Source: a virus
Lineage: Duplodnaviria > Caudoviricetes
Reading direction: 5' to 3' (one strand)
IMG/VR virus record: IMGVR_UViG_3300037067_013225
Location: 64,001 to 128,000 of that record
DNA: 64,000 bases
Shown here: positions 342 through 64,000 of the stretch, piece after piece
How the letters are laid out: each line of letters opens with the position of its first letter
How positions within the stretch are numbered: position 1 is the first letter of the stretch
The notes under the pieces: generated by a model
The model's input: only the letters and a program-made list of their open reading frames with translations
Database searches by the model: none
Told to the model about the DNA's origin: nothing
Made by a program: the position numbers and the translations under genes

Positions 342-1173
342 ATGCTGGCAATATCGCTTGCGCAAACAATATCTGGAATCCGATATCGCGGCTCTCGGAT
401 TTAATGCGGATCAATTATCGCAAATGCGCGTTAAAGATTTCGTATTCGCAAACGAATCGCCAAGTAAAGAAATCACCGATTTTATTTTGAAATATGAATG
501 GCTCGGATCGATGGCCCAACAGACATCGCATTGTTTTACGGCTAGATATCGTGGTATATTGGCGGGGGTAATAACTCTAGGCACACCGAATACTTTTAGT
601 AAAATTCTCGGCCCGGAAACAAAAAAAATGGAGCGTCTGATATCGCGAGGTGCTTGTGCATCATGGACACCCAAAAATTTAGCCTCGGCATTAATAATGT
701 GGTCATTGCGTTGGATGGTTAAAAATACACCTTATCGAGTATTTGTGGGATATTCTGACAGTGAGGCCGGTGAGCAGGGTACGATATATCAGGCTTGCTC
801 ATTTTATTATTTGGGAGACGATTTCGGTACGGGATATTTATGCCTGTATAATGGTAAGTGGATTTCGCCAAGAAGCTTTACAACATTTGCATCGTTTAGA
901 AAATACGCCAGAAAGTACAATCTGCCGTGGGAACCAGAATGGAAACGATGTCATCCTCAAGGTATTAATGTTATTCCTAAAGAATTAAAAGATCGTCTGA
1001 TGAAAATTGGGAATGAACTGAGAGATTCTTGCGAAAAGAAAAAAATCCCGCACAAAAGAAAATACGTATGCGTGTTGGGTGCGAATAAATCTGAGGCTCG
1101 TTCACTGGTGCAGGCTCTACTAAAATACACCCCTCGCGCCACTAAAAAATATCCCTTGACAAAAACACTCTGA
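322..1173 (+). CDS. Mom-like / GNAT-fold DNA modification protein
   Basis: ISRGAC..PKNLAS.LI...L and V.YSDSEAGEQGTIYQAC.FYYLG match the conserved core of phage Mom-like acyltransferases. The start may be the ATG at 334. Confidence 0.6.
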   Translation: MRYRMDECWQYRLRKQYLESDIAALGFNADQLSQMRVKDFVFANESPSKEITDFILKYEWLGSMAQQTSHCFTARYRGILAGVITLGTPNTFSKILGPETKKMERLISRGACASWTPKNLASALIMWSLRWMVKNTPYRVFVGYSDSEAGEQGTIYQACSFYYLGDDFGTGYLCLYNGKWISPRSFTTFASFRKYARKYNLPWEPEWKRCHPQGINVIPKELKDRLMKIGNELRDSCEKKKIPHKRKYVCVLGANKSEARSLVQALLKYTPRATKKYPLTKTL

Positions 1174-1184
1174 CGCGGTATACT
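1156..1184 (+). promoter_or_regulatory. sigma70-type early promoter, probably producing leaderless mRNA
   Basis: TTGACA (1156-1161), 17-nt spacer, TATACT (1179-1184). The ATG at 1190 lies only 5 nt downstream. Confidence 0.8.
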
Positions 1185-1189
1185 GAGGT

Positions 1190-1914: not shown

Positions 1915-1915
1915 G

Positions 1916-2849: not shown

Positions 2850-2851
2850 GC

Positions 2852-2880: not shown

Positions 2881-2885
2881 GGAGT

Positions 2886-3865: not shown

Positions 3866-4321
3866 TTACCAAATTATAGATCTTTGTAGAGCCTTGGCTG
3901 CTCTGATATCAGCCATATCTTTTAGAGTTTTCTTTTTATGGCAATTTTTACAAAGCGTTTGTAAATTAGACAAACTCCAATACGATATATCGCGTGGTGC
4001 CAACGCTAACGGGACGATATGATCCATATCCCAATCTATAACAATCTTGCCGCAATGAGCGCATCGGCCCTTATCTCGCTCTCGCACACGACATCGTAAC
4101 CATGCTGGATCTTGCATTTCTAATGCTCTCAGATATTGTTCACGGCAATCTCCATCGCACCAATGGCGCGCCAAGTTAGGAGTGCCGTCTTTTTTCGGCA
4201 GCATCTTTCCGCACAAATGGCAATAACCAACAGGATATTTTTCCGATTTAACTAGCTCGATAATCGGATGCGGTGGCGGTGTTCTATGAGTTGCCCGTTT
4301 TTTAGCCTTGTGCCTTGACAA
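3866..4321 (-). CDS. HNH endonuclease
   Basis: VRERDKGRCAHCG...DMDHIVPL...NLQTLCKNCHKKKT, plus an N-terminal CxxC zinc motif. Confidence 0.85.
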   Translation of the reverse strand: MSRHKAKKRATHRTPPPHPIIELVKSEKYPVGYCHLCGKMLPKKDGTPNLARHWCDGDCREQYLRALEMQDPAWLRCRVRERDKGRCAHCGKIVIDWDMDHIVPLALAPRDISYWSLSNLQTLCKNCHKKKTLKDMADIRAAKALQRSIIW

Positions 4322-4343: not shown

Positions 4344-4375
4344 GTAGAGGCTCTAAAACTATACCCAGGTGGATC

Positions 4376-4624: not shown

Positions 4625-5352
4625 GATATCTAATAATTTTATTGCTATTTTTAACATCGTGTCCGCATAAAACTAGTTCTTTTGATTGGGGAAGTCAGCC
4701 ATATCAGAATATTGTTCCGCCGCCCATCGGTAGATGGGCTGCAACTCCCACGATATCATACAATGGTGAACTTTTCTCATCGCAATCTATTAGGCCCGAT
4801 TGGGCCTTAAATAGCGCTACATCAACGTTTCAGGAAGAATTGATAAATATTTCTAAGTGGTGCGATGGGATCGGTTACAAGATTGGTTCCGGATCTGATA
4901 TAGATGTCTATTTTTATTATGAGCCATATACAAAGAAAACATCCTCTATAGGCGATGATTGTCTAGTCATAGTAGAGCCACCGGGGAAAGCTACAAGCAC
5001 GGCTTCTCCGCCCGCGCCCGGATCTAATTATTCCGGTGTAGCGATTGTAACATCCGATAATCGTACCATTAGTCATGTCGATGTGTGGTTGAATATCAAT
5101 AAATATCAGGTATTTTATGACGAATATAAAATCCGATATCCTAAAGCATCTGATAAAGAATTAAAAACGTGGGCTGTCAAAAAAGAAAATGCGATTTTTG
5201 CAAGGATTATCTGGCACGAGTTGGGTCATGCCCTGTTTGGACTGTCCGATGACAGTCAAGGCTCTACTAATGGAACTATGGTATACGCAACCATGACAAT
5301 ACCATATAATACGGAAGAAACCGCAGTTATCAAATGGATGTACGGATTATGA
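4621..5352 (+). CDS. Lipoprotein zinc metalloprotease (zincin/metzincin-like)
   Basis: Signal peptide with lipobox MRYLIILLLFLTSC, HELGHALFG zinc motif and a downstream Met (GTMVY). Confidence 0.7.
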   Translation: MRYLIILLLFLTSCPHKTSSFDWGSQPYQNIVPPPIGRWAATPTISYNGELFSSQSIRPDWALNSATSTFQEELINISKWCDGIGYKIGSGSDIDVYFYYEPYTKKTSSIGDDCLVIVEPPGKATSTASPPAPGSNYSGVAIVTSDNRTISHVDVWLNINKYQVFYDEYKIRYPKASDKELKTWAVKKENAIFARIIWHELGHALFGLSDDSQGSTNGTMVYATMTIPYNTEETAVIKWMYGL

Positions 5353-6229: not shown

Positions 6230-6913
6230 TTAATCTTTTATGAGGATAAATCCTAAATTTTTAATATTTCGATACCAAGACGATACTCGATCTGAAGCGT
6301 TGCCCTCAACTGTCCAGATAACAGTATCGGATACAACGGCTCTAACAATACCCGTATGTTTAAATCCAGTAGGACCACCCTTTACTACGAACAAACATCC
6401 AGGATAAATATCTTTAATATCCTCAGTATAGAGCTTGAGTTTGTCGGCTTCTTTTTTTAGACGAGAACTTGAGGATTTTTCTTTTATGGGAGGTTTGTTG
6501 GGTGCTGCTGCAAGTCTGAGGCAGTAATTTAGAGCGAAGTATGCGCACCACGGATATTTTTCACCCTCAAATCCACCGGTATACTTTTTTACAAATGGTC
6601 CGCTATTCGGACCACCGATTTCTTTTGCGCCAGCGGCTAATTCTGTTAGTGCTATTTTTAATAATCTCTCAGCCAAAGATGGATATGCGGAAGTTTTGGC
6701 TTTTGGCAGATTTTTCACCGCAGTTATCAATATGGGGAGTGTTTTTTCACCAACGATGCCATCGATTTCAAGATCATAATCTTTTTGGAATTCTCTCACA
6801 GCGTGTTCTGTGGCGGGTCCGAAAACACCATCTATGACCAGATGTGATCCGTATTTGTCTAGTAGTTTTTGTAGAGCCTTGACTTTGGTTCCTGTGTCGC
6901 CGTTTTGTAACAT
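6230..6913 (-). CDS. Endolysin: peptidoglycan-binding domain plus CHAP amidase
   Basis: DGVFGPATEHAVREFQ...DGIVG (PG_binding_1); PWCAYF, HTGIV and TVEGN (CHAP catalytic Cys/His). Confidence 0.9.
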   Translation of the reverse strand: MLQNGDTGTKVKALQKLLDKYGSHLVIDGVFGPATEHAVREFQKDYDLEIDGIVGEKTLPILITAVKNLPKAKTSAYPSLAERLLKIALTELAAGAKEIGGPNSGPFVKKYTGGFEGEKYPWCAYFALNYCLRLAAAPNKPPIKEKSSSSRLKKEADKLKLYTEDIKDIYPGCLFVVKGGPTGFKHTGIVRAVVSDTVIWTVEGNASDRVSSWYRNIKNLGFILIKD

Positions 6914-7004: not shown

Positions 7005-8927
7005 ATGATATACGACTGCTTTAGATTTCTAAATGAGAATGATATGTTGGAGATACGTTTCCAACAGCACTCGTTTGCGGATAAATTTGTCATCATCGAA
7101 TCGGATCAAACCACATCTGGATTATCCAAGCCATATAATTTCGATGTGGAGCGATTTAAGAAATATACTGATAAAATTATCTATTTGCAAATCGGTCCGA
7201 TAGATATCGCAAGAGAGAAATATGAATATTTCGAAAACAATATCGAACGATGGAATAGAGAGCTTGTTCATCATGGTGCATTAAAGCAAATATTACCCTT
7301 GCTCACTAATCGTGATATTATTATGTGGTCTGATGTCGATGAAATGTTGAAAAGTCCCCCCATATATGGGAATATAAGATATATTTCTGGATTATATTAC
7401 TACTACTTTAATAATCGTCTATATGATAGGAAAAATAATAATTTCTTATCTTGGAAATATCAGGTAAGTTTCACAAAAAAAACATTAGAGAAATATAATC
7501 CGTTTCATCTTAGGAATAGTAACACTATCAAATGGGATATACATGAGGATGCCGGTTGGCATTTTGCATATATTGGCGATGTAGAAAAGCTTAAATATAA
7601 GCTTGAGGCGGCTGCGCACCAAGAATACAATACCGATAAAGTCAAAGAACAGCTATCTGAGAAGATTAAGCAGGGTGTGGATTTTGCTTCAGACAGATAT
7701 CCCGGCAAACAGACACCAATTAACGAATTACCACAATGTATTATTGATAATCAAGAAAAATATAAGCCATTTATTCTGTTGGATCGTCCGATAGTGGAGA
7801 ATATCTCAGTAAAAGAGCGTAGGATGAAGGATTTGCGTAATTTGCGTGTAGCACAGCGCGCAGAGGCTAGGCGAGTACAAGAGGAATGTAGATTGGAGGC
7901 ACTGCGCAATCTGCATGAGGCTAAAAAGGCAGAACTGCGCCGCATACAGGCGGAAAAGGAGGCCAAAGCAAACGCGGCACAACGTAGGTTGCGTAAACGT
8001 GACAGATATACCGCCCCTCCCATTGTCTCACCGGTTGCTTCCGTTAGCAACGTGGATGAATTTAATATTTTAATGCTTGGATCTTTGGGAGATGTCATAT
8101 GTAACTCGGTAGTTGTCAATAATATTCGCCTATCATATCCAGATGCTAAAATTACATGGTGCATAGCCAAGAAATATCTCAAAATTTCATCCAATATCAT
8201 TGGAGTGGATGATTGGATTGTTGCTGATGATATCGTAGGTCACGATATACACGAAATAGATAGAGAGCAACCAGCATTTAAGGAAATATTTGCGTCAAAA
8301 CCGAATTTAATTGTTTTACGTGACTGTTCCAGTCCATTATACGGTAGTAATTGGACCAATACTGGTGCAAATCTAATGGAAACTGCGATTAGAGATCTGG
8401 CAAGATTTGTATCGGTTCCAATCAGAGAGAAGAAAGGTACTTTTACTATCTTTAGGGACGATATAATTAAATGGCGTGACTGGGTGAAGGATAACGATAA
8501 GTATATTTTCTGGGAATTTACCCCCATCAGCACAACGCCTTTAATGGTGCCGGAAGAATATTTTGCTCTTGCGGACAAATTATATAAAGATCTGCGATGT
8601 AAGTCTATATTCTCATGTTCACCAGAAAATAGGGATAAATATATCTCGTACAATTCAAAAAACATCCGAATATGCGACCTATCGTTAGCTCAAGTAGCAG
8701 CGGGAGTTAAACAGCAAGGCTCTATATTTATGGGATGTACATCAGCACAAACCTGGGCTGTATGTGAGACATCCAATGTCCCAATTTTAGAGCTATTGAA
8801 TCCGGCAGTTACAAAAAAATTGCGTGGAATATCGGTTAAACAATCACACTATACTAATCCTAGCGAAGTAATAACGGTAAAATCATATCAGGTAATAAAA
8901 GATGCGATCACGTCACTACAAAGATAA
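7005..8927 (+). CDS. Bifunctional glycosyltransferase: GT17-like N-domain, charged coiled-coil linker, GT9-like C-domain
   Basis: MIYDCFRFLNE...DKFVIIES...SDVDE...AGWHFAY (GT17-like); LGSLGDVI....NIRLSYPDAKITW (GT9/heptosyltransferase-like). Confidence 0.75.
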   Translation: MIYDCFRFLNENDMLEIRFQQHSFADKFVIIESDQTTSGLSKPYNFDVERFKKYTDKIIYLQIGPIDIAREKYEYFENNIERWNRELVHHGALKQILPLLTNRDIIMWSDVDEMLKSPPIYGNIRYISGLYYYYFNNRLYDRKNNNFLSWKYQVSFTKKTLEKYNPFHLRNSNTIKWDIHEDAGWHFAYIGDVEKLKYKLEAAAHQEYNTDKVKEQLSEKIKQGVDFASDRYPGKQTPINELPQCIIDNQEKYKPFILLDRPIVENISVKERRMKDLRNLRVAQRAEARRVQEECRLEALRNLHEAKKAELRRIQAEKEAKANAAQRRLRKRDRYTAPPIVSPVASVSNVDEFNILMLGSLGDVICNSVVVNNIRLSYPDAKITWCIAKKYLKISSNIIGVDDWIVADDIVGHDIHEIDREQPAFKEIFASKPNLIVLRDCSSPLYGSNWTNTGANLMETAIRDLARFVSVPIREKKGTFTIFRDDIIKWRDWVKDNDKYIFWEFTPISTTPLMVPEEYFALADKLYKDLRCKSIFSCSPENRDKYISYNSKNIRICDLSLAQVAAGVKQQGSIFMGCTSAQTWAVCETSNVPILELLNPAVTKKLRGISVKQSHYTNPSEVITVKSYQVIKDAITSLQR

Positions 8928-10778: not shown

Positions 10779-11920
10779 TTGGTTTAGCTACAGTGGACAT
10801 TACTGATGCGGAAATAGATGCCGTAGCCAAGGTTCTGAAAAGTGGAAAAATTTCGCCAGGAAGTGTTCAGCGCGAGTTCGAAGATTACGTAGCGAATAAG
10901 CATGGAATGAAATATGGAACGTTTGTTAATAGTGGTCAGAGCGCGCTTCATCTCTCCTTCGAGGCTCTAAAATATGAAAAGGATTATCAATATATCGTTT
11001 GTCCAGCTACCACATATATATCTACTGTTTTTGCCGCTTGGAATGCGGGGCTTGGGGTCAAACTGGTAGACGTTGATTCTGAGACATACAATATGAGGGA
11101 TTTCTCTGATATCAATGATAAAACAGCAATTATGTGTCCGGTTAATTTAATGGGGCTGAGCGCCAATCATCCTAACTATTTCAATATACCATCAGGTGTG
11201 GCTCCGGTGGTGGAGGATAATTGTGAAAGTATATTCGCTCCGTTTAGTGGATATGGCGATTTTATGTGCTTGAGTTTTTATGCTGCGCATCAGATTACTA
11301 CTGGTTCCGGGGGTATGATTTGTACTAATTCTATAGAGCGGGACCGATTGATAAAAAGTATCTGTAATCATGGACGTGCTGATTCCACCAATCTCTATAC
11401 TGCTGATCGTAATGAATCATACGACAAGAGCAAAAAGTTTATATTTGATAAGGTCGGATTTTCTTACAAAATGGGAGATTATATGGCCGCGCTGGGATTG
11501 GTACAAGCGCAGAGATCTGCTGAGATTATCGGTAAAAAGGTAGAGGTTGCCCACAAACTCATAGACAGATTATCTATACATTCTGAGCGCATTCAGTTAC
11601 CAACGAAAATCGGTAACACTTTTATGAATTTCCCCATAGTCGTCAAAGGTAGAAAAACTGGCCTAGTCAATCATCTAAATGATTGGCAGATCGAAACACG
11701 AGATCTTATGCCAGTATTGAATCAACCGATAATTCAAAAAGAATTGCAAAAAAATATTTTCCGTATGGTTCACACCAAGAATATTATTCATCGGTGTAGA
11801 GATTTATCTGTTTCGGAGAGTCTTCTAGACAGTGGATTTTATATCGGATGTCATCAAGGTATGACCGATGAAGACGTAGAGTATGTGGGGGAGGTTTTTG
11901 ATGCCTATTTCCAAGCCTAG
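10763..11920 (+). CDS. DegT/DnrJ/EryC1-family PLP enzyme, ColD-like (GDP-4-keto-6-deoxymannose 3-dehydratase type)
   Basis: VNSGQSAL, VEDNCES and SFYAAHQITTGSGG, with His at the position of the usual PLP lysine. Confidence 0.75.
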   Translation: MDKRIIGLATVDITDAEIDAVAKVLKSGKISPGSVQREFEDYVANKHGMKYGTFVNSGQSALHLSFEALKYEKDYQYIVCPATTYISTVFAAWNAGLGVKLVDVDSETYNMRDFSDINDKTAIMCPVNLMGLSANHPNYFNIPSGVAPVVEDNCESIFAPFSGYGDFMCLSFYAAHQITTGSGGMICTNSIERDRLIKSICNHGRADSTNLYTADRNESYDKSKKFIFDKVGFSYKMGDYMAALGLVQAQRSAEIIGKKVEVAHKLIDRLSIHSERIQLPTKIGNTFMNFPIVVKGRKTGLVNHLNDWQIETRDLMPVLNQPIIQKELQKNIFRMVHTKNIIHRCRDLSVSESLLDSGFYIGCHQGMTDEDVEYVGEVFDAYFQA

Positions 11921-12605: not shown

Positions 12606-13879
12606 TGCTATATAGTAAGATCATTAACGATTTATGGGATACAAGACGGGATTTAATTTCGGACGGTTACGATAGTGCGATTGATTATCTGCAATCATTG
12701 CTGCCGGATTCTACAATACATTCCTTCCACACCGGATATCGAACTAATCACTGGACGGTTCCTCCAAAGTGGGTGCTGAAACAAGCATATATACAGGATA
12801 ATCTAACTCAGGAAAAAATTATCGACATATCTAAGCATGGATTGCATGTTATGTCATATTCGCAAGCTGTAGATATTCCTCATGCAACATGGGATTTTGT
12901 GAACAAACATTTGTCAGATAATGCGAAATGTCCCAATGGTATACCATTTAAGTTTTCCTACTATAAGGATGAATGGGGATTCTGTTGTTCCACGAAGGAC
13001 AGGAGAAAATTTTCTCGCGAGAAATATGATGCAGATTTCTCCATCAAGATAGACTCTGAATTTCTGCCAGGTGAACTAAAGGTTCTCGAATATGTTGTGC
13101 GTGGTTCTAGAGATAAGGAAATACTTATCATGGCTCATTTAGATCATCCATATCAGATTAATGATGGTTTATCCGGTGTCGCAGCATTAATAGATATTGC
13201 TTTGTCCATTAAAAATCCGAAATATACTTATAGATTTTGGATATTGCCCGAAACGATTGGTTCCATATGTATGCTACACAGGTTCCCCCTTCCGAATATC
13301 GATAGCGCAATCTTTCTAGATATGCTCGGTGCAGACGGACTATTGGTTTGCCAACTTCCCAGTCCCGTCATGTCACCACTGCTTGGCTCTATAAAAAAAT
13401 ACACAATGACGACAAAAAATCTACGTTATATAGGTAATGACGATAGAGTTTTAAATTTCGCCGGTATACCGTGTTATTCGTTTAATCGGATTAATCATCT
13501 TGACAATGCTTTTGGAGACCCATATAAGGAGTATCATACCAGTGAGGATAATGTTTATGGTACGAAAAATATGGATGATGCCATTAGTACGATTTCAAAC
13601 ATACTAAATTATTATGAATGCGATGAAACAGTTAGATGTTTTACTAACGAGATGCCGTGTTTATCCGCAATAAACAGTTTATCTACACAAGCAAATATGT
13701 ATAATTTTATGTCGGATATTTTTTCGTCGTCAGAGAAGGAACAAATATTATCTATATGTCGCGATGATTACATGGAAATTAGAGACTTGTGCGAATTATT
13801 CACTAAAGATTATAGCGATATGTTATTGTTGTTGCAGGAATTTGCAAACAATGGGTTGGTGGTGATTCGCAATGTTTAA
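12605..13879 (+). CDS. DUF4910 / M28 aminopeptidase-like protein typical of polysaccharide loci
   Basis: WTVPPKW, LHVMSYS, SYY...WGFC, AHLDHP, NDGLSG, PETIGSI, EYHTSED. Confidence 0.8.
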   Translation: MLYSKIINDLWDTRRDLISDGYDSAIDYLQSLLPDSTIHSFHTGYRTNHWTVPPKWVLKQAYIQDNLTQEKIIDISKHGLHVMSYSQAVDIPHATWDFVNKHLSDNAKCPNGIPFKFSYYKDEWGFCCSTKDRRKFSREKYDADFSIKIDSEFLPGELKVLEYVVRGSRDKEILIMAHLDHPYQINDGLSGVAALIDIALSIKNPKYTYRFWILPETIGSICMLHRFPLPNIDSAIFLDMLGADGLLVCQLPSPVMSPLLGSIKKYTMTTKNLRYIGNDDRVLNFAGIPCYSFNRINHLDNAFGDPYKEYHTSEDNVYGTKNMDDAISTISNILNYYECDETVRCFTNEMPCLSAINSLSTQANMYNFMSDIFSSSEKEQILSICRDDYMEIRDLCELFTKDYSDMLLLLQEFANNGLVVIRNV

Positions 13880-18945: not shown

Positions 18946-19078
18946 GATTGGCACGTTTGGTTGCAATTTCCGTAATCACAGCATTATAGAACACCGTCAA
19001 CAACTCCTTGGCTCTATAAAGATCGTCTATTTTTTCAATAGCATTTAGAGTATTAGTTTCGATGGGTGTTTTAGACAT
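18887..19078 (-). CDS. Small hypothetical protein
   Basis: 63-aa ORF starting 2 nt after the TlpA stop. Confidence 0.5.
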   Translation of the reverse strand: MSKTPIETNTLNAIEKIDDLYRAKELLTVFYNAVITEIATKRANLISPDDFVRLKALIEKNLL

Positions 19079-21089: not shown

Positions 21090-21245
21090 GTGGCAAAAGA
21101 AATACGGATTTGTTATGCGAAGTCAAGTAGAGCCTGGGTGTGGGAAATCTGGGACGATGAAAGTCTACTGGATGAGGGGCTGGAGGACGAAATAACTGAT
21201 GCCTTTGAAGCCGCCAGGTTTGTTCTAGAGAACGATGATGACTGA
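21090..21245 (+). CDS. Small acidic hypothetical protein
   Basis: In frame with track ORF 21018..21245. The GTG at 21090 follows GGGTATGAT (21075-21083). Confidence 0.45.
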   Translation: MAKEIRICYAKSSRAWVWEIWDDESLLDEGLEDEITDAFEAARFVLENDDD

Positions 21246-23984: not shown

Positions 23985-24262
23985 CAGAAATCAATTTCCG
24001 TTAATTCGTATTCTTTACATTTTATTACCGGTATGCCCCATAATAGATGAGGTATCACTGACATTTTTTGGATTATCTCACATTGTTTTGGTTCCGCGTT
24101 TATTACGATTTGGGCGTTATTGTTCTGATTTTTTATAGAAAGAATTTGTGAACATATATTTGCGAATATTTCATTTGCGGTCATGCAAAGAGGATCAACA
24201 TACACCGTGTTTATACCGTCTGATACACCATCATCCAGCCTCGGCTCTAAGAAATTTTCCAT
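23984..24262 (-). CDS. Hypothetical early protein with C-terminal IDF tag (ends YELTEIDF)
   Basis: ATG at 24262 is 7 nt after the -10 box. The track start TTG at 24298 is the -35 box. Confidence 0.7.
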   Translation of the reverse strand: MENFLEPRLDDGVSDGINTVYVDPLCMTANEIFANICSQILSIKNQNNNAQIVINAEPKQCEIIQKMSVIPHLLWGIPVIKCKEYELTEIDF

Positions 24263-48702: not shown

Positions 48703-49478
48703 TGCTTAAACTGGTTAGAGATCTGAATGGGCCAGACGCAGATATCACGGATGTAGCGCTAAAAGCAGCAGACGGCTCTACTAATATTACTGATTTTCGT
48801 GAAACAGGATTGTTACTAATAGATGAGACTATGTGCGATTTTTTTAGATTAGCATTTTCCGATCAAAAACGCCTAGAAGATCATATTCATATCGGAGAAC
48901 CACGAGTAAATTTTGATGTTCCATCCATCTATGTGCGTGTACCTACAGTTCAGTACCGATCTTTTATCGGTAATAAAATGGGGCATAATTTAAAGAAGGA
49001 TAATGCTCTAGTATTGACGGAGCAATATGATCGAGACGGTAACGTTATCGGGCGTACCAGTAATATTGCGCAAAAAGACGCACCAGTGCAATATTTGGGT
49101 CATTTGGCCGTGGCGAATGCGACAATCCAATGTTATTCGGATAATTTCGATGTAATGAGAAATCTGGGTCACACCGTTTATAGTTTATTGATGCACAATT
49201 GTGAATATTACTTAAATGCCAGATCATCCGACTATAATGATACAATTAAAGAGAATCAGAATCCCGAATTCGGTGGTTTTTATCTAACGGGGCATCGAGA
49301 AAATTTTCACGACCAGATAGCGGGTGTAAAAAATGTCTATTCGATCTCTTTTGGATGTGTTATAAACTATATCATTCGCGTTCCAAGGTATTTTACATAT
49401 ATTACAGGCATCGATGTGACTGAGACTGTAGAGACACAAGATGGTGAATTTATAAAAACGATCCAAACAACCATTTAA
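48702..49478 (+). CDS. Probable tail terminator / completion protein
   Basis: Directly upstream of the sheath; size and PSIYV pattern are plausible. Confidence 0.45.
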   Translation: MLKLVRDLNGPDADITDVALKAADGSTNITDFRETGLLLIDETMCDFFRLAFSDQKRLEDHIHIGEPRVNFDVPSIYVRVPTVQYRSFIGNKMGHNLKKDNALVLTEQYDRDGNVIGRTSNIAQKDAPVQYLGHLAVANATIQCYSDNFDVMRNLGHTVYSLLMHNCEYYLNARSSDYNDTIKENQNPEFGGFYLTGHRENFHDQIAGVKNVYSISFGCVINYIIRVPRYFTYITGIDVTETVETQDGEFIKTIQTTI

Positions 49479-52662: not shown

Positions 52663-54170
52663 TGTCAGATATCGGGACTAGCGTTCATATCAATATTTTT
52701 AGTGATTTGGGGAGCGTTTTCTCTCAAATTGAACTTGCCCACACACCCGACAAACAAGATTTTGAAAACATTTCAGATAAACCCGATATTGCAGAAATAA
52801 ATGCGGTTCCGACGATAGAAAAACCATCTTCTCCGGATAAAGAATTATTTATGCAGTTTTTGAATAATTATCAGCAAAAAGAGTTAACATTCTCCGATAT
52901 ATTACATTCTGGATTATTTCATGGTCCAGAAATCGCACAAATCAATCAAATTCAGCCACAATCATCGCTCTTTGAAACCGCCGCCATATCTTTGCCAGCC
53001 TTAGAATTCCCAATTCTGGATAATATGATTCTAAAATCAATAGAGCCACCCGATATAGAATTGGCTGTGTCGGCATCATCCGAACCAACAGATATAGCTT
53101 ACGATATTCCCAGTCCAAGTCCCAGAACCGATTTTGTTATCCCAGAAATGCAATTCCCCACATATGAATTCCAATTGCCGGAATTGCAAACCAAAGATAT
53201 CCAACTTTCCTTGCCAGATATCCCAGAACATAAAGATATATCATTCGAGGAATTTCATAGTCAGGAATTTTCATCCTTTGAATATGAAATACCGCAATAT
53301 GTTAGCCACGATATCAATTTAGATATCGTTAAATCCGATATCGGACAATCCTCAACTATAGATATTGCCGAGACGATATCTCATCAAACAATGGCGTTTG
53401 AATTGCCGGAAACGGGATTCCGACCATTAGAATGGGAAACATCCGATATAGGCAGGCAATCAGATCGTTTACCATTTGATCTACCGATATATAATGCCGA
53501 AAAACTATCATTTCCAGAAATATCATATCAGACACCCGAACTAGGGATATCTATACAGATTCCAGATATCCAATCGCGCGAATCCCTTGAATTACCGAAG
53601 GAAACTATTTCTAACGCAATACCCGATATATCTATCGGAACGCCCATAGAATATGCAGTGGAAAATTTGCCAAATATATCTGGCAACGAATCGTTAACGT
53701 TTAATTTACCGATAATAGAGCCAAGAACAGTTGTACCAGACCTGAATATTGCAGAACAACAAGCAAAGTTCGAAGCGACAATTCCGGAGACGCGTTCGGA
53801 AACGTATGCTTTTGATTTACCAGAATTCTCACAGCAAGCGGTCATTCCGGAGCTTTTACAGCAACCACCAGCCCAGGCTCTACAAATAGAAACACCAGCG
53901 GAACAAATATATGCCCAATTAGAGTTTGATATTCCTCGTGCAGAGTACCAGAGTAGTGAATTTGAATTACCGTTAGTCAGTTTTGAACCGATCATGTTCA
54001 ATACACGATATAATCCGGAATTTCCGTCTTTTAATCCCGATTTAGAAGTTGATCAAGGTGAGTTTAAACGTCCAGACGTATTCGATAGTGGATTGCATCT
54101 AGATATGCATGCGATATCCTATGATAACAATCCTTCGCTAAATAGTGGCGGATTGCAGGTGTGGTCGTGA
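52662..54170 (+). CDS. Acidic Pro/Glu/Ile-rich repetitive protein occupying the tape-measure position
   Basis: Directly after the chaperone pair; recurring F.(L/I)PE units. Confidence 0.55.
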   Translation: MSDIGTSVHINIFSDLGSVFSQIELAHTPDKQDFENISDKPDIAEINAVPTIEKPSSPDKELFMQFLNNYQQKELTFSDILHSGLFHGPEIAQINQIQPQSSLFETAAISLPALEFPILDNMILKSIEPPDIELAVSASSEPTDIAYDIPSPSPRTDFVIPEMQFPTYEFQLPELQTKDIQLSLPDIPEHKDISFEEFHSQEFSSFEYEIPQYVSHDINLDIVKSDIGQSSTIDIAETISHQTMAFELPETGFRPLEWETSDIGRQSDRLPFDLPIYNAEKLSFPEISYQTPELGISIQIPDIQSRESLELPKETISNAIPDISIGTPIEYAVENLPNISGNESLTFNLPIIEPRTVVPDLNIAEQQAKFEATIPETRSETYAFDLPEFSQQAVIPELLQQPPAQALQIETPAEQIYAQLEFDIPRAEYQSSEFELPLVSFEPIMFNTRYNPEFPSFNPDLEVDQGEFKRPDVFDSGLHLDMHAISYDNNPSLNSGGLQVWS

Positions 54171-55939: not shown

Positions 55940-58026
55940 GAATTCATCTACAGCGAGTAATTTCTTCGAATCCGGAAAAGCAAACCGTTGATTTGTTCGA
56001 TGAAAAATTTGCCGTATGGAATGCGCAGGAAACGTCAGATAACCCAACGATTATTCCTGACGTTCCGTATTTGTCGCCGTTAATTAACGACTATAACTTG
56101 TCTTATATCTGGGGACATTATGAATATTTAAAATCGCAAGGAAATCTTTTGCCAGGGTTCATAGATCCAGAACCGAATGGTGGGAAATCGCTACTAGATA
56201 TTTATGGTCCATCATTTCTATTTGGTCGTAATTTTAATCCGGCATACTTAAAGGATATCCATGAGAAATATTACAAGGGGAAGGGAACCAATCCGAAAGT
56301 CGTTTCTGGCGGCATGTCTTATCGTCCGCCGGAGGGATCTCTAGCTATATGTGTACATACTGAGTATGAAGGCTCTAATATTATTTTTGTTATAGGGTTT
56401 GTTAGTTTATCCGCCTTTTATGCGCTATATCAAGACATAGATGATTTCGAAGCGCCGAAAACGCAGGGATCTACGTTTAGTCCGGAATATCAAAGCGAAT
56501 TATATAATGAGACCGGAGATAATATTGGAGAAATCATTGGCGTTTCTCATGACAGTTTTGGTCACGGAAACATTCCCTATGATTATGGTGAGGAAGACGA
56601 AAACCCGATAGATCAGTTTAATAAAACGTCCCTAATAGGAAAACATTTTCCCGTTTCTGGTAGTCGTGTGGTGTGGCAAATAACAACACCCGCGCATGTA
56701 GAAAATCTCAATACGGAATTTATCCGTTTTAAGCAGAACGAGATTAAGCGTATAGGAGATATTTTTAACCTTGCGACATCGGGCGACCCCAACAAGGCTC
56801 TATTAAAAACTACAGCCGAGGATTCATCCACTGATACTAAATACAGACTATTTTCTAACTGGAAACAATACAACCCAGACAAAACAACGCTATCTATAAA
56901 TAATATGGCATTAGATGATGTCAATATTTTTGATAATTATGTCAAAGATAGCACAGAAACATCTGGATTTGCAAAGGAATTCGCTTACGAGGAACCCGTT
57001 CATATTGCGCCAGAATCAGGTATCAAGATGTGTCGCGATGGGAAATTGGTTTTTTATGCCGATGTTTATGATTCGTTTGCGGATTTTAATAAACCGACCA
57101 ACTATGATGAATATTTTAAGGAAACTAGCACTTTTTATAAAAAGACTTTTGCAAGCGGAAAGTCTGAATATATCAGTAATCTTGACAGTCAATACGCCAT
57201 ATTGAATGGCGCAAGCGCATCGGAGACATTTAAATACTATTTTAGACAGTATAAGATTGATAACCCACACGAAGAAGATAGTCGTTATATTGATGCGTTT
57301 AATGACCGTGGTGCATATATGGTTATTGATCCATCTTATGTGGAGTTGTCATCCGATTCTAAAAAGGGGGGGTATCTTTTAGAGAAATCATCAAGAAAAT
57401 ATAGTAGAGCCAGGGAGTATGAAAAAAAGGTGGTTTATTCGGAGCAATCCGTTTATCGCAGATTGTTGTTGGATCAAACTGTCACATTCGATCATGATCG
57501 AGCTTATGCGTGGGAACTTTATGGCGATGAGAATATTAGAGAGGGGACATATTCCGTAGACGCTCCTCTAACAATATATAAGAGTTTTAGAGAATATCAC
57601 AATGTATTGGAATCATCCGTTACTGAGGTTAAGGGATTAAAAAACGATATTTATGCTGGATTGTTTATGGGTCGTATGTCGGAGCAGGGTTCTGATACTG
57701 ATGATGGCGGCTGTATTATGCTACGTGCAGGGACAAATACCACGGTGGGTGGTTCTTTGGGCGCAGCCCAAACTAGACCGGAAGAGAATAAGGGTGGCCG
57801 CATTGTTCTGGATGCGCATGAGATTGTGCTTAACGCTAATCGCATTATGTTGGGGCAGATTAGAATAGATCAGCGAGACAAAATGGACGAATTAAATCTT
57901 GGCTCGATTCTCCTAGCTATTGTTCCAGATCCGGCAATAGAAAAAATTGCGCATTTGTTATTTACCAACAATCCCATAAATGTTCGCAAGGCTCTAGCCA
58001 ATTTTTCCAAGAAAGTAAATAAATGA
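55936..58026 (+). CDS. Probable baseplate central spike (gp5/VgrG-like)
   Basis: N-terminal OB-like RV.S.NP...TVD...VPYL and P.EGS motifs; beta-repeat C-terminus. Confidence 0.45.
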   Translation: MRIHLQRVISSNPEKQTVDLFDEKFAVWNAQETSDNPTIIPDVPYLSPLINDYNLSYIWGHYEYLKSQGNLLPGFIDPEPNGGKSLLDIYGPSFLFGRNFNPAYLKDIHEKYYKGKGTNPKVVSGGMSYRPPEGSLAICVHTEYEGSNIIFVIGFVSLSAFYALYQDIDDFEAPKTQGSTFSPEYQSELYNETGDNIGEIIGVSHDSFGHGNIPYDYGEEDENPIDQFNKTSLIGKHFPVSGSRVVWQITTPAHVENLNTEFIRFKQNEIKRIGDIFNLATSGDPNKALLKTTAEDSSTDTKYRLFSNWKQYNPDKTTLSINNMALDDVNIFDNYVKDSTETSGFAKEFAYEEPVHIAPESGIKMCRDGKLVFYADVYDSFADFNKPTNYDEYFKETSTFYKKTFASGKSEYISNLDSQYAILNGASASETFKYYFRQYKIDNPHEEDSRYIDAFNDRGAYMVIDPSYVELSSDSKKGGYLLEKSSRKYSRAREYEKKVVYSEQSVYRRLLLDQTVTFDHDRAYAWELYGDENIREGTYSVDAPLTIYKSFREYHNVLESSVTEVKGLKNDIYAGLFMGRMSEQGSDTDDGGCIMLRAGTNTTVGGSLGAAQTRPEENKGGRIVLDAHEIVLNANRIMLGQIRIDQRDKMDELNLGSILLAIVPDPAIEKIAHLLFTNNPINVRKALANFSKKVNK

Positions 58027-58463
58027 TAATTGTGCAGAAAGTTGATCATAGCGAGGAACTTTATCTGGAATATGCTCAGGTAGCACAATTGGTCGGTAAA
58101 AATAAATATTTGGTTGCGGATGTCTCATCTCTCAAAATGCATCCACAGGGAGCGAAATTAGCCAATCTGGTGGTTGAGGGATACGTTTCTTTAGCGTCAG
58201 ATGGAACTTTTGATGGATTACAGTGGAAAAAGAAGATATATGACTTTTTTTCATCATCTGCAATGCCAATAGATCAGTTTTTAATCTTGTTTTCTCCAGC
58301 CCAAGGCTCTACAAAATTAATTGCAAGATCCGTAATAGACGAAATAACCCTAACCATGGATATTAGTCAACCAACCGTACTTAAATATCAGATCAAATTC
58401 TTAGCTAGTCCTTTTGCGAAAACAGCACAAGGTATAAATGATGCTTATTGGGTGTCGCGATGA
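58023..58463 (+). CDS. Probable baseplate/tube-initiator protein
   Basis: Synteny and tube-like size. Confidence 0.35.
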   Translation: MIIVQKVDHSEELYLEYAQVAQLVGKNKYLVADVSSLKMHPQGAKLANLVVEGYVSLASDGTFDGLQWKKKIYDFFSSSAMPIDQFLILFSPAQGSTKLIARSVIDEITLTMDISQPTVLKYQIKFLASPFAKTAQGINDAYWVSR

Positions 58464-58972
58464 CAGATTATATTCAGGTAGAGTTATCTTATGGCGGCAA
58501 AACATTTCTCTTTCCATATCCGCAGAAATTGATTGTTGCGCGTAAGTTTTTGTCATTCAGATCTGAAACCATAAGTACGCCAGTTGCCACCGCCTTTAGA
58601 CCATCATTCGATATTATATCTGTGGATTGTTTAGAGCCGTTAGACAATCCGAATCAAGATGTGTTGTGGGATATTTTCGATCAAATCGGTAAAAATTCCA
58701 AAGTGGAACAATATTCTGTTTTGGGTGATATCGCGGCGGGTGGGATACAATCTCAACCGTTCGCAACATTGCGCATCACATATAAGGATCAGGGAATGTT
58801 CTTTTATTATGTTATGCCGGAATCCTACAATATGAGCTATACCACTTCGGTACGAGGTGCGTTAAGCACATTTAATTTTGTTGGTTGTGATACTTTATCT
58901 GCATTAAACACATATACACTTATGGGTTCACGCGAAATGCCACCCATAACAAACGGAAAGTTCAATATCTAG
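58460..58972 (+). CDS. Probable baseplate/tube-initiator protein
   Basis: Synteny; F.FP.PQ.L motif; ATGA-coupled start at 58460 (track 58448). Confidence 0.35.
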   Translation: MTDYIQVELSYGGKTFLFPYPQKLIVARKFLSFRSETISTPVATAFRPSFDIISVDCLEPLDNPNQDVLWDIFDQIGKNSKVEQYSVLGDIAAGGIQSQPFATLRITYKDQGMFFYYVMPESYNMSYTTSVRGALSTFNFVGCDTLSALNTYTLMGSREMPPITNGKFNI

Positions 58973-60040: not shown

Positions 60041-61374
60041 TGTTAACATTTTCTGAGCTTTTAAACTATTTCCGAGATGCATTGAGGGCCTTTTCTCGTT
60101 ATCCGCTCAATTATTCTGAAAACTCGTTATTTTATAGTTTGGGGCAATCTGTTGCATCACTAGCCGCCAAAAACGAAGCAGCTATCGAAAATATGATCAC
60201 TAGATTATCTCTCACTAGTGCTGTGGGGACCGATTTAGACAACTTAATGGGGAATTTTCAGATTTATCGCAAACCAGAGTCTCAATCCATTGGTTATGTG
60301 AATATTTATGCCACTACACTTCCCACCACGAATATTTTTCTGTCGGCGGGTACGGCATTTGTTGATGAAAATGGACAAAGCTTCGTTTTGACTCAAACTG
60401 CTATTATTCCCAGCAGCACATCATATTATCCTCTAGATATCGTTGGATATATGAATCCCAACTACTACGCTTTACCTTTGGCGAGTAATTTATCAGCTTT
60501 TACAATAGCTGGTCTTTCTGTCGAGGAAATTCGGCAACAATTACTCAGTACCACTAAAATTTCATCCAGATGTGATGTAGCTGGTTTGAGTGGGAATATC
60601 GGTGCAAGGCAGATTAATGCGACGAGAGCCGGAAATATCAAGATTACAAATCCAGAACAATTTAGTGGCGGGGCGAATGCGGAAAACGATGAATCTTTCA
60701 GATCCCGTGGTTTATCCATTATACGGGGTTCGCAGAGTAAATTTACCAGCGAAGCACTCAGGGGATATTTATTGACACAACAGGGGGTCATGGATGCAAA
60801 AATTATTGAAGATACTGGTTGTATTACTATAGCGCCACCACCGTCAGGTCATATATATGCGATAATAAATACCAAACTTATGCCGGAATACCAAACGTCA
60901 TATGCGTCATACCCAGCCTTGGCTCTAAACTCCGATCTATATCAATTAATACGCAATTCAATAGAGATTGACGGTTATAGACCTTGTGGTATCGGTATTA
61001 CTGTTAGAGAGGCAGATATTATTAATGCGGGATTTACAAGCGATGCTGGTGATTATTTGACAATTTATGTGGATAGTTCTATCGTACCGTCCATTGCAAA
61101 AGTAGAGTTGCAAAATATGATATTCGATTATTTTGTTAGTACCAAGATCGGTCAAAGCATATATCCTATAGATATTTATAATTTGATTAAAAGTTATTCG
61201 GGTGTTGTGACTATGGATAACTTTACATTTCTACAAACAACTGGTTTTGATTCTGTTGGTGCGGATATTACATCCGAGGTGAGCTTTCTGAATGCGGCTT
61301 GTAATCAGGTATTTAGGATCAGAGGCCCAGAATATGTCAATTTAGAGGTTGAATATGTCAGTACGACTAGCTAG
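60040..61374 (+). CDS. Baseplate J-like (gpJ/gp47) wedge protein
   Basis: AVGTDLDNL.....IYRK, GT.F, G..GNI....I, ITNPEQFSGGANAENDESFRSR, RPCGI. Confidence 0.9.
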   Translation: MLTFSELLNYFRDALRAFSRYPLNYSENSLFYSLGQSVASLAAKNEAAIENMITRLSLTSAVGTDLDNLMGNFQIYRKPESQSIGYVNIYATTLPTTNIFLSAGTAFVDENGQSFVLTQTAIIPSSTSYYPLDIVGYMNPNYYALPLASNLSAFTIAGLSVEEIRQQLLSTTKISSRCDVAGLSGNIGARQINATRAGNIKITNPEQFSGGANAENDESFRSRGLSIIRGSQSKFTSEALRGYLLTQQGVMDAKIIEDTGCITIAPPPSGHIYAIINTKLMPEYQTSYASYPALALNSDLYQLIRNSIEIDGYRPCGIGITVREADIINAGFTSDAGDYLTIYVDSSIVPSIAKVELQNMIFDYFVSTKIGQSIYPIDIYNLIKSYSGVVTMDNFTFLQTTGFDSVGADITSEVSFLNAACNQVFRIRGPEYVNLEVEYVSTTS

Positions 61375-62038
61375 AAATTTTGACACCATTACATACGAAC
61401 CGCTTGGTGAAGCGGCCATATATAGCCCTGATGCGAACAACAGTATTAGAAGTTTTGGTTTTATGGCAGAAGGCGGTACAATACGGCAGAGCTATTTCAT
61501 CAATTCTATTTCTGCCGCACCGTTTAATATCGAGCATATCCATTTATATCAGCCCGACATTAACTATTATTCAACAAATGTGCAGGTTTTTGGATCATTC
61601 AAACTTCCATTTGTAACACCTTTGGGTACGCCCAGAATGCGATTTTATTTGTGTTCGCCAAGTACATCCAGTAGGGTTGCCACGATTGAACAAGATGAAA
61701 ATGGCGACGATATTCTAGTGCAGCATCTAACTTTGGACGAATATATCAACGATACCTATAACGCTATAGATACGCTTCATGCTGACGGACCGGGCGTTAA
61801 TTATGGGACTCATAAATTGGATAATTTTTTGCAATCTTTTGATGTTATTTGTAATATCGGTACATATACTTTGGCCGGTAATCTAACATATTACAATCTT
61901 TATTATAACGATCCAAATAATGTTGCGCAAAGACATAAATATGATTTGCTAGCTTATGTTGAGCTGCCATATAACAATATTAACACCTCTACGTCCGATT
62001 ATACTATCGATGTAAGCGAGACGACTCTGCCACTGTAA
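61349..62038 (+). CDS. Hypothetical baseplate-associated protein
   Basis: 229-aa ORF after baseplate J. Confidence 0.5.
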   Translation: MNMSVRLARNFDTITYEPLGEAAIYSPDANNSIRSFGFMAEGGTIRQSYFINSISAAPFNIEHIHLYQPDINYYSTNVQVFGSFKLPFVTPLGTPRMRFYLCSPSTSSRVATIEQDENGDDILVQHLTLDEYINDTYNAIDTLHADGPGVNYGTHKLDNFLQSFDVICNIGTYTLAGNLTYYNLYYNDPNNVAQRHKYDLLAYVELPYNNINTSTSDYTIDVSETTLPL

Positions 62039-64000
62039 TGTATGATTTAATCAACTACGATCAATATGTATATGATGCCGAAGGGCAGTCATTTGACTTT
62101 CGCATCGTGTGCCGGAATAAAACTACCGGTGGTGATCGTACTGTTCGTGGAGTAAATTATCTAGACTATAGGCGTAGCTATCAAACATATATCCATTCGC
62201 TTAACGATAACTCCGCTGGTGAATTGGCGCGAGATTCTACCAGATTATATGGATACGCGGTATCTGCGATAACAGATAGGGAAGAAACTAAAAACAAAAT
62301 AGATCTGCCGTCACAATATATCATATATGGTGTGACAGATTATGGTGATCGTATTCCGATAATGACTTTAACATTAACTTCATTCAATTATAATTTACGT
62401 GGACGGGCTACATTTAGTATCAGTGACTACTATGCTACGGGAGAAATCGTTTCGCAAACATTGGAAGATGAATACGATATAAGTCCCAGTTACCTGTATA
62501 GGCAGGTATTGCGATATACTTATTATGATCACAGCGGATATCATGAGATGGAATATGCCGGTACACCTAGGCAGATTATAAATTACCTAATTGGTGGATT
62601 ACCGTTTGCGACAGAGCTTTTAGTAGAGCCTGCATTTGTGGGAGACGCTTTAAATGCTATAGCTTACGATCAAGATACCATAGATAACGAAGGTAGTTTG
62701 TATTCTGATGATAGATTGCGTCCAGGGGTATATTTTACCTCTATATGGCAGGACTATTACGATAATTCTCAGTTTTCGACCATTGCTTTAGTTCCAACTG
62801 AAATTGAATTTGTAGACAGTAACAATGCACCAATATATGCGCTTATTAAGAGTGTTGTATCTACTGTGGATATTGTATCTCAGAGGATATTTAGGGCATT
62901 CGATAGCTTTTTTATTAAAACTATTAACTTATTGGATTATAAATATTGGACCACGGTATTGGATACCAAGATATTCAAATATTCGTATCAGGAAAATAAA
63001 ACAACTACAATTTCGGCGATTAATTATAATGTTTTGAATCAGCTTGAGTCTATTGAGGTTGCAGATGCCACTCGCTGGCCTGATTTCGCCATGGTGTTGA
63101 TCGATCAGGAGCTAGCACAATTTACCAGTCGGATTGGGAACATCCTGTATATTGATGAGGGGAATAGGCATATTGATGGTGTTCGTAATATGCCATTACG
63201 GGTTGGACAAACCGTGAAACTATATGGAGATGTGAGATTAACAGAGAATCAAGATGCATTCAGATCGCGATTGATGTCCTTTTTGGGCGAAAAAGAGACG
63301 CCCAAGGCTCTAAATAATGCCCTGCAAATTTTATTACAAAACTCTGAAGGTGCAACTGGTGAAGTATTTGATTTCCACAGTTATGACTACCTAACATCAG
63401 AAAATATCAGATGGGCATTTCCTAAACGCGAAATTGGTTGGTTTGCTGGTGGAAACGGGGATTATTCGTTAAAATCCGCCACCTGCTCATATGTGGCAGC
63501 TACAAAAACACTCACATTGAGCAATTTGTCGAACAGTCTAGGATATTTGACATCTGGAGACACCGTTTATGTAAAATATGGTGGAGATGACGAGATATCT
63601 ATCGGGTATGTTTATTCTATCGATGCGATTAATAATACGGTTGTTTTGATAGACGCATTGACTGATTCTGACGGCGTTTTGTTGGGGAATGTTACGGGAT
63701 CGGCATCATTTTATGCACTTGGTTCATCGCAAACAAGGATTAAGGAATCCGATATCGGTGACGCATTCGATTTTGAAGACGAGACGATTTTAAATCATTC
63801 GCTAGAGACATTGGGATATTTCCACAATACACAAGATATTAAGACCATCTATTACGAAACTATCACGAACCAAGGCTCTACTACTTTACCGATAGCGATT
63901 GCGTCTGAAGATACATCCCAATATGACGAAGCTATTTATAACATTGCTGGGATTACCGGCACAAATAACCAATACAACTATACGGGTAAAATTTTATCGT
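62038..64000 (+). CDS. Large baseplate wedge (gpI-like) / fibre-anchoring protein, truncated at the window end
   Basis: Absent from the ORF track, consistent with no stop before the window end. TAATG start at 62038 reads MYDLINYDQY. ENQDAFRSRL...ETPKALNNALQILL near 63240-63340 resembles gpI-type motifs. Confidence 0.6.
   Translation, partial: MYDLINYDQYVYDAEGQSFDFRIVCRNKTTGGDRTVRGVNYLDYRRSYQTYIHSLNDNSAGELARDSTRLYGYAVSAITDREETKNKIDLPSQYIIYGVTDYGDRIPIMTLTLTSFNYNLRGRATFSISDYYATGEIVSQTLEDEYDISPSYLYRQVLRYTYYDHSGYHEMEYAGTPRQIINYLIGGLPFATELLVEPAFVGDALNAIAYDQDTIDNEGSLYSDDRLRPGVYFTSIWQDYYDNSQFSTIALVPTEIEFVDSNNAPIYALIKSVVSTVDIVSQRIFRAFDSFFIKTINLLDYKYWTTVLDTKIFKYSYQENKTTTISAINYNVLNQLESIEVADATRWPDFAMVLIDQELAQFTSRIGNILYIDEGNRHIDGVRNMPLRVGQTVKLYGDVRLTENQDAFRSRLMSFLGEKETPKALNNALQILLQNSEGATGEVFDFHSYDYLTSENIRWAFPKREIGWFAGGNGDYSLKSATCSYVAATKTLTLSNLSNSLGYLTSGDTVYVKYGGDDEISIGYVYSIDAINNTVVLIDALTDSDGVLLGNVTGSASFYALGSSQTRIKESDIGDAFDFEDETILNHSLETLGYFHNTQDIKTIYYETITNQGSTTLPIAIASEDTSQYDEAIYNIAGITGTNNQYNYTGKILS

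Follow-up and report, generated by a model that had tools for sequence, protein, structure and literature searches.

The stretch analysed here (hereafter the window) is 64,000 nucleotides long and comprises bases 64,001-128,000 of a single 202,677-bp virus record, IMGVR_UViG_3300037067_013225. The source is an uncultured tailed jumbo phage whose genome has a CheckV completeness of 91%, and the element in question is the heptamer GGCTCTA, found over and over on both strands. Genes recognised in the phage genome include those for the virion (portal, large terminase, HK97-fold capsid and baseplate J), for replication (DnaE-type polymerase, ribonucleotide reductase, DnaB-like helicase, DnaC-like loader and AEP primase), for recombination (RecA, Rad52-like protein, Mre11/Rad50-like proteins, RuvB and PD-(D/E)XK nuclease) and for a sigma-70-type factor. 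Near-identical phage DNA is present in one landfill and one groundwater metagenome. Searches with the phage proteins found no close isolated phage, and taxonomy searches with capsid, portal, RecA and DnaE gave no host signal.

The word was first noticed in a sequence-only reading of the window, which gave coordinates for 52 exact copies. All of them are present, 33 as GGCTCTA on the plus strand and 19 as TAGAGCC. Their window positions are listed below, each an exact match.

1113..1119, plus, GGCTCTA copy
3887..3893, minus, GGCTCTA copy
4349..4355, plus, GGCTCTA copy, intergenic
4973..4979, minus, GGCTCTA copy
5260..5266, plus, GGCTCTA copy
6338..6344, plus, GGCTCTA copy
6872..6878, minus, GGCTCTA copy, left edge of the 10.7-kb minus-strand gap
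8718..8724, plus, GGCTCTA copy
10963..10969, plus, GGCTCTA copy
13385..13391, plus, GGCTCTA copy
15313..15319, plus, GGCTCTA copy
17538..17544, minus, GGCTCTA copy
19010..19016, plus, GGCTCTA copy, intergenic
19768..19774, minus, GGCTCTA copy
20080..20086, plus, GGCTCTA copy
21128..21134, minus, GGCTCTA copy, intergenic
21456..21462, plus, GGCTCTA copy
24243..24249, plus, GGCTCTA copy
24796..24802, minus, GGCTCTA copy
25851..25857, plus, GGCTCTA copy
28050..28056, plus, GGCTCTA copy
29051..29057, minus, GGCTCTA copy
30333..30339, minus, GGCTCTA copy
30511..30517, plus, GGCTCTA copy
32880..32886, plus, GGCTCTA copy
33525..33531, minus, GGCTCTA copy
35395..35401, plus, GGCTCTA copy
36085..36091, plus, GGCTCTA copy
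37881..37887, minus, GGCTCTA copy
38684..38690, plus, GGCTCTA copy
40467..40473, minus, GGCTCTA copy
40746..40752, plus, GGCTCTA copy
41191..41197, plus, GGCTCTA copy
41322..41328, minus, GGCTCTA copy
43062..43068, plus, GGCTCTA copy
45987..45993, minus, GGCTCTA copy
46838..46844, plus, GGCTCTA copy
48463..48469, plus, GGCTCTA copy
48774..48780, plus, GGCTCTA copy
53041..53047, minus, GGCTCTA copy
53716..53722, minus, GGCTCTA copy
53876..53882, plus, GGCTCTA copy
56371..56377, plus, GGCTCTA copy
56796..56802, plus, GGCTCTA copy
57405..57411, minus, GGCTCTA copy
57990..57996, plus, GGCTCTA copy
58305..58311, plus, GGCTCTA copy
58632..58638, minus, GGCTCTA copy
60921..60927, plus, GGCTCTA copy
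62624..62630, minus, GGCTCTA copy
63306..63312, plus, GGCTCTA copy
63874..63880, plus, GGCTCTA copy

Abundance of GGCTCTA and selection at the DNA level

In dinucleotide-preserving shuffles of the window 3.73 ± 1.85 copies are expected and the maximum reached is 9, so that the first rough estimate of about 5 copies at about 37% GC was close (the window has 37-41% GC). The whole genome holds 186 copies (109 plus, 77 minus) where a second-order Markov model predicts approximately 13, an enrichment of 14-fold. Each full 10-kb bin of the genome contains 4-13 copies, and the density is roughly one copy per 1.8 kb on the plus strand and one per 2.6 kb on the minus strand, or about one per kb overall.

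Most copies (166/186, 89%) lie within open reading frames (ORFs), 90 in sense and 76 in antisense orientation, and the other 20 are intergenic. The sequence-only reading had described the copies as spread over several reading frames and not peptide-driven, and this holds genome-wide, with four frames used in the two senses. Sense copies occupy frames 0 and 2 (36 as G-S-x, 52 as x-A-L) and antisense copies frames 1 and 2 (36 as V/L/I-E-P, 40 as x-R-A); the two frames in which the word creates a stop are empty or nearly so. When synonymous codons are shuffled within each gene the enrichment persists, with 166 copies in genes against 25.3 ± 4.8 expected (maximum 42), and permuting codons lowers the expectation to 14.8. 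By the synonymous shuffle GGCTCTA has the highest z score (28) of all 7-mers and the next-ranked ones are its own sub-words, which disposes of the alternative that similar 7-mers are equally frequent. The two shuffles and the spread over frames thus rule out a peptide or codon-usage artefact.

The word is carried at 166 of the 716 synonymous placements (23%) that the present proteins allow. Residues under the sites are 38% identical to those of the relative G001, introduced below, against 49% for the rest of the same proteins, and therefore some sites were bought with amino-acid changes. Of the one-off variants, CGCTCTA and GCCTCTA alone are enriched (about 3-fold), and the others stand at 0.5-1.7 times expectation. 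Because these variants are neither consistently enriched nor depleted, there is no sign of mutational conversion of near-matches or of mass site decay. GGCTCTA is a DNA-level feature under strong selection, a genome-wide cis signal. In this general form (selected, DNA-level, not peptide-driven) the first description stands, whereas several of the analogues it listed, namely KOPS, HIP1 and the uptake sequence DUS, fail on grounds given in the final section.

Regular spacing on each strand and preferences around the core

The main new result is that each DNA strand carries a separate and unusually regular GGCTCTA series. To say, as was first done, that the copies are spread fairly evenly understates the matter, since the merged series, with a coefficient of variation (CV) of 0.80, is significantly more even than random (P about 0.001). 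Taken strand by strand the CV is 0.64 (plus) and 0.73 (minus), both below the merged value. Control word/strand sets of similar abundance have a mean CV of 1.03, and 0/343 lie at 0.73 or lower. When strand labels were re-dealt over the same 186 positions, the CV was 0.85 and 0.88 (label-shuffle P < 5e-5 for the plus strand and for both strands summed, 0.03 for the minus strand). Close neighbours on the same strand are scarce, with 2 gaps of <200 bp on the plus strand where 11 are expected and 0 on the minus strand where 5.5 are expected. The median same-strand gap is 1.7 kb (plus) and 2.2 kb (minus), 86-87% of gaps fall within 0.5-6 kb, and the longest on the minus strand (10.7 kb) begins at window 6872..6878. 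Strands alternate more often than by chance (runs z = 2.8), and divergent pairs (TAGAGCC...GGCTCTA) lie at a median distance of 585 bp against 1002 bp for convergent pairs (shift-null P 0.001-0.01).

The plus orientation accounts for 59% of copies in plus-strand genes (74/53) and for 59% also in minus-strand genes (23/16), so orientation tracks the DNA strand and not transcription. The 186 genome copies show no within-gene position preference. Nor is there a polarity switch along the genome, the distribution being uniform, also after re-origining at the genome end of the relative. A check on strand skew and spacing regularity, proposed when the word was first noticed, thus returns a 59:41 split with no switch and regularity on each strand separately. 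Two independent per-strand series point to a one-strand, one-direction signal for a machine travelling either way, of which this is the expected look. As a separate observation, the genome has a second DNA-level word, CGATATC (209 vs 79 expected by synonymous shuffle; GATATC 292 vs 147), with 170 GATATC-strand hits in the window and a spacing that is not regular (CV 1.08).

Since exact matches were counted, no variation is possible in the seven core bases. Around them, weak preferences are seen in all frame classes, with C at -4/-3 and A or T at -2/-1 on the 5′ side, which is C-rich and G-poor back to about -17, and A at +3 (74%), +4 and +5 on the 3′ side, giving a consensus of roughly C-C-W-A-GGCTCTA-N-N-A-A-A. 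The extended form pointed out in the first reading is real, with CAAGGCTCTA(C/A/T) in at least 42 of the 186 copies. The base before the word is never G, because GGGCTC is a form of GRGCYC, which has zero copies in the genome. A by-product of restriction-site avoidance can account for the missing 5′ G only and not for the 14-fold excess.

Preferences over about 19 bp, including an A-tract, are what a duplex-DNA binding site for a phage protein (nucleoid-organising, silencing, regulatory or packaging-related) could leave behind, the copies then being high-affinity monomer sites. Phages with scattered asymmetric operator sites are known, and the early-region intergenic copies fit such a role in having a longer consensus and adjoining TGCTATAAT promoters. 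An architectural protein, however, would have no need of per-strand regularity, whereas here each strand's series has a lower CV than the two merged; genes contain 89% of the copies, in sense or antisense, and there is neither an excess of nearby inverted partners nor a conserved element at promoter distance. We consider a duplex-binding protein quite unlikely as the reader. Two other regulatory candidates were rejected. A sigma-factor promoter is ruled out since antisense copies are approximately as many as sense copies and no conserved element lies at -35/-10 distance, and terminators or inverted-pair operators are ruled out by the lack of an inverted-partner excess within 50 bp (15 upstream vs 13 downstream).

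Two early-region intergenic copies outside the window, at genome 7,932 and 19,104, have near-identical 60-nt contexts (...AATTTAAC..AAGGCTCTATGAAT...GTGCTATAAT) and stand directly upstream of an extended -10 promoter. Several further intergenic copies have CTAAC.GCAAGGCTCTAWGAA in common. The word may have a second, regulatory use at early-region intergenic copies.

Relatives, host searches and restriction pressure

Scans of IMG/VR and JGI metagenomes gave G001 as the only large relative (220,861 bp with terminal repeats, 31.7% GC). It has approximately 100 genes in common with the phage at a median identity of 37%. Protein searches also returned two further terminases, one on a 16-kb contig with 96% identity and the other on a 134-kb contig with 54% identity. 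G001 has 10 copies of GGCTCTA and DNA-level words of its own by synonymous shuffle, namely CTCTTTA (199 vs 58 expected), CTCTTCA (136 vs 49), GCTCTTTA (63 vs 12) and AGGCTCTT (33 vs 7). GCTCTTYA is present there in 118 copies, in several frames and moderately regular per strand (CV 0.77 and 0.83). In a third relative, a 21.5-kb piece, CTCTAAA is in mild excess (23 vs 6 expected) and GGCTCTA occurs six times. At 50 alignable orthologue sites G001 has GGCTCTA at 1 and GCTCT at 4; positions are not conserved and the sites were therefore made after the split. The clade thus has in common a preference for GCTCT plus pyrimidines, then A, and in this phage it has been sharpened into an exact heptamer. 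The relatives' GGGTCW was ruled out as an analogue, as 94 of its 157 copies are in a single frame and it is codon-driven. Another G001 word, GGGTATAAT (46 copies, 43 on the plus strand, mostly intergenic), is a promoter-type word (extended -10).

The comparison with G001 also bears on other parts of the genome. A block of eleven sugar-metabolism genes (window 6972-18945, plus strand), including GT17-like and GT9-like glycosyltransferases, a DUF4910/M28 peptidase-like protein and a phosphoglucomutase-like protein, is among the best-conserved parts (46-71% identity, except 33% for the last gene) and is inverted and relocated in G001. A single ORF of 3,726 aa (window 26893-38073, plus strand) has a G001 counterpart of 4,550 aa (34% identity over 1,729 aa) and probably encodes a giant virion or tail protein. 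The first two of the following genes, which all lie outside the window, have no counterpart in G001.

Genome 32,577-34,109: Ro60/TROVE-vWA protein
Genome 2,381-3,811: arginyl-tRNA-synthetase-like protein
Genome 200,486-200,558: tRNA-Lys(UUU), one copy

A word at about one copy per kb on both strands with a weak AT-rich flank resembles uptake sequences, and GGCTCTA could accordingly be a host-wide genome word (USS/DUS-like, or the product of biased repair or recombination) common to the phage and an unsampled host lineage. The searches made turned up neither such a host nor another phage with the word. Three IMG/VR scans with 15-18-base versions of the pattern, with the richest loci followed up, revealed no other phage enriched in GGCTCTA; a few contigs contained 5-9 copies, but with the wrong flanks and with other 7-mers ranking above the word. 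A GTDB-wide scan with an 18-base extended pattern gave at least 120 loci with one match each, none of them heptamer-rich among the matches listed. Among 401 sampled genomes of one Firmicutes phylum none exceeded 17 copies of CAAGGCTCTA or showed enrichment, and no enrichment of GGCTCTA was seen in 10 other genomes. In the literature searched there was no paper with GGCTCTA in a relevant sense, nor one describing a phage-private heptamer with strand-wise regular spacing. A similar strand-wise spaced word, with the core GTCCGAAA, may occur in an unrelated 127-kb phage, an unchecked case that does not count as independent evidence. Other observations also speak against a shared word. One-off variants are neither depleted nor generally enriched, the per-strand regularity argues for selection on direction and not for neutral drive, and an uptake-driven process would find a poor target in a 203-kb phage of lytic type that brings replication machinery of its own. 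A host-wide word is weakened by these searches, incomplete as they are for both hosts and phages, and appears decidedly unlikely to us.

Restriction-site avoidance in the phage genome is extreme. CGATCG (41 expected), AGGCCT, AGTACT, CAGCTG, CTGCAG, TGGCCA, CGTACG, CCGCGG, CGGCCG, CCCGGG, GTGCAC, GGGCAC/GTGCCC and all four GRGCYC forms have zero copies in 203 kb. GGATCC occurs once in the genome and not in window 1-64000, where CGATCG, CTGCAG, CAGCTG, AGTACT, TGGCCA and GRGCYC are likewise missing. Non-palindromes are depleted as well (CTCGGG 1 vs 38 expected, CAGCTC 6 vs 48, GCTCGC 5 vs 37, CTCTTC 29 vs 80). GATC is found 930 times in the phage, which has the methyltransferase gene given below, and zero times in the 220 kb of G001 (615 expected), where the gene is absent. 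The two phages look like alternative escapes from a GATC-cutting host enzyme.

Genome 151,876-152,613, minus strand, outside the window: D12-class (Dam-like) adenine methyltransferase

These data bear on the suggestion that GGCTCTA is the recognition site of a modification enzyme, a self-mark that protects or labels phage DNA. Candidate enzymes are at hand, as the phage has, besides the D12-class methyltransferase, a radical-SAM protein, a dNMP kinase and many glycosyltransferases. Enrichment is not usual for modification motifs, however; given the 930 GATC sites, the D12 enzyme makes better sense as a GATC methylase, and the wholesale avoidance of restriction sites suggests largely unmodified DNA. 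We regard a modification mark as very unlikely.

Under such restriction pressure, with many 6-bp sites at zero, DNA breaks should be frequent, and this lends interest to a Chi-like signal. The word would switch off or redirect a helicase-nuclease tracking from a break, either host AddAB/RecBCD or a phage enzyme, with the consequence that cut phage DNA would be less degraded and would be fed to the phage RecA. An enzyme entering from either side suits both orientations and the per-strand regularity. The density is near that of the Chi-rich phage LLS (one per 1.86 kb), and G001 (31.7% GC), whose host is probably a different one, has a different word, which a host-tracking Chi would lead one to expect. 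The Chi sites of known Chi-rich lambdoid phages (LLS and MD8; also P1) are read by host RecBCD, with orientations of 20:3 in LLS and 32:0 in MD8 (PMC12315714). In these phages the sites are one-sided and end-clustered and recombination modules are missing, whereas our copies are uniform at 59:41 and the phage has the recombination genes listed at the outset. Since recognition of Chi is only partly efficient, clusters should help, yet close same-strand pairs are missing. No word-rich genome was met among the 401 genomes of one Firmicutes phylum or the at least 120 random-hit loci. The idea of a host Chi mimic, raised in the first reading, thus departs from known Chi-rich phages in gene content and orientation; a Chi-like function is possible in our view, although unlikely.

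A candidate reader and the comparison with known systems

It is worthwhile to ask which machine could read such a word. The features of the word suggest an enzyme that reads DNA in one direction, the likeliest candidate being the primase of the phage itself. In its broader form, the claim is that the phage replisome or another direction-reading phage machine needs a private 7-base word and that the genome was re-coded, in part at a cost to the proteins, to supply it at regular kilobase spacing per strand, which we put at somewhat short of an even chance. The narrower proposal, that GGCTCTA is the start signal for the only recognisable primase of the phage, an AEP Prim-Pol, is more tentative still, although we rank it first among the specific explanations. 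A primase start site was absent from the analogues suggested at first. From what is observed (the word, its selection at the DNA level, its strand-wise regularity and independence from transcription, the gene content and the fit to a published rule), we infer the primase as the reader together with every priming step at the word.

Genome 163,420-164,337: AEP Prim-Pol (Pfam AEP-TOTE 7e-17; PHROG 'DNA primase'; PDB CAPP Prim-Pol 6e-12)
Genome 170,407-171,624: DnaB-like helicase

The phage replisome would read the word on one strand and in one direction. The word would be the preferred start site of the AEP primase-polymerase on a single-stranded template, working with the DnaB-like helicase and the DnaE polymerase. 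The 3′ A would serve as a 'cryptic' base that is not copied, and pppA-G-A-G-C-C would be the start of the primer. The genome would have evolved to offer sites, spaced at the intervals of Okazaki fragments, on each strand for when it is the lagging template. The result could be a 'self-addressed' genome: priming, or a different strand-tracking step, would be efficient on the phage's own DNA only, and related phages would carry drifted versions of the word.

Five lines of evidence place the primase first. No DnaG-type primase was found in the phage genome (neither a DnaG zinc ribbon nor a Toprim domain), and the AEP Prim-Pol is conserved, being 44% identical to its G001 counterpart, with the CAPP Prim-Pol domains 7nqd/7nqf as closest solved relatives. 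According to a review, every Prim-Pol examined begins synthesis with two purines placed opposite pyrimidines, and an uncopied 3′ purine has a stimulating effect, so that templates of the form 3′-R-Y-Y-5′ are preferred (PMC10345425). Read 3′ to 5′, GGCTCTA is A-T-C-T-C-G-G, a cryptic A and then four pyrimidines; this strand fits the rule and the complementary strand does not. The weaker words of related phages, GCTCTTYA and CTCTA(AA), show the same pyrimidine run and then a 3′ A. Lastly, T7 has approximately 26 strong sites, made up of a pentamer plus a 10-nt 3′ flank, at effective intervals of 1-6 kb (PMC12839067), and the per-strand GGCTCTA gaps (median 1.7/2.2 kb) match these Okazaki-fragment intervals.

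Several considerations weigh against a primase signal. The match to 3′-R-Y-Y-5′ is post hoc, and a random heptamer has a chance of about 1 in 4 of fitting in one or other orientation. Known primases need just 3-5 specified bases, and we know of no described primase with a 7-base requirement. In T7, KGGTC is found about once in 340 bp on each strand, with hardly any enrichment and no regularity (CV 0.86-1.0). The weak flank preferences could equally well reflect a duplex-binding protein, the closeness of divergent pairs relative to convergent ones (585 vs 1002 bp) is not predicted by a primase model, and the word of the relative is much weaker (3-5 fold). Probability not taken up by this and the alternatives above belongs to causes we have not thought of.

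Few short words shape whole genomes (Chi, KOPS, uptake sequences and HIP1 among them), and through each of these a DNA-handling machine has come to light. GGCTCTA appears to be private to the lineage of this uncultured jumbo phage. As a primase signal it would be the first of its kind, a specificity of sufficient length to sculpt a genome, and Okazaki-fragment spacing and self-specific replication could then be read simply from sequence. As a Chi-like signal it would disclose the Chi of the host and a phage in which dense Chi and recombination genes of its own occur together.

Among known systems, the T7 gp4 primase sites (5′-(G/T)(G/T)GTC-3′ plus 3′ flank) are alike in being a strand-specific template word with an uncopied 3′ base, and together with the Prim-Pol rule they share the predicted purine-purine start, a contributing 3′ flank and sites on both strands 1-6 kb apart. 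The T7 word has 5 bases and is common, barely enriched and irregular, whereas the word here has 7 bases, is enriched 14-fold and is regular; the primase here is of AEP type, not DnaG/T7 type. The Chi of Chi-rich phages is likewise a short non-palindromic word that outnumbers all others of its length in the phage, occurs about once per 1.9 kb and is read one way by a translocating enzyme. It differs in being the host's Chi, in phages without recombination genes and with end-clustered copies oriented 20:3 or 32:0, and here recombination genes accompany a uniform 59:41 distribution.

The DUS of Neisseriaceae and the USS of Pasteurellaceae also occur at about one per kb, on both strands, in genes, as a core with a weak AT-rich flank and more evenly than random. 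They belong to the chromosomes of competent bacteria. The analogy with DUS needs a word-carrying host chromosome, and none was found for this phage, in which spacing is regular on each strand and not merely in the merged series. The KOPS analogy also falls away, because KOPS, like SRS (the FtsK and SpoIIIE guides), are strand-skewed toward the terminus and switch there, whereas GGCTCTA is split 59:41 without a switch and the plus strand has 59% in both gene orientations. HIP1 (GCGATCGC) of cyanobacteria is a hyper-abundant short word imposed on coding sequence as well, yet it is a palindrome of host chromosomes, and GGCTCTA is asymmetric, differing from its reverse complement TAGAGCC, in a phage with zero CGATCG. 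The stoperators of Cluster A mycobacteriophages (asymmetric 13-bp repressor sites) are similar as many asymmetric sites scattered over a phage genome; they are mostly intergenic, about 25-30 per genome and co-oriented with transcription, whereas 89% of GGCTCTA copies are in genes and their orientation is independent. GGCTCTA works like the direction-read genome words, yet it fails the defining features of KOPS, HIP1, stoperators and the pattern of Chi-rich phages.

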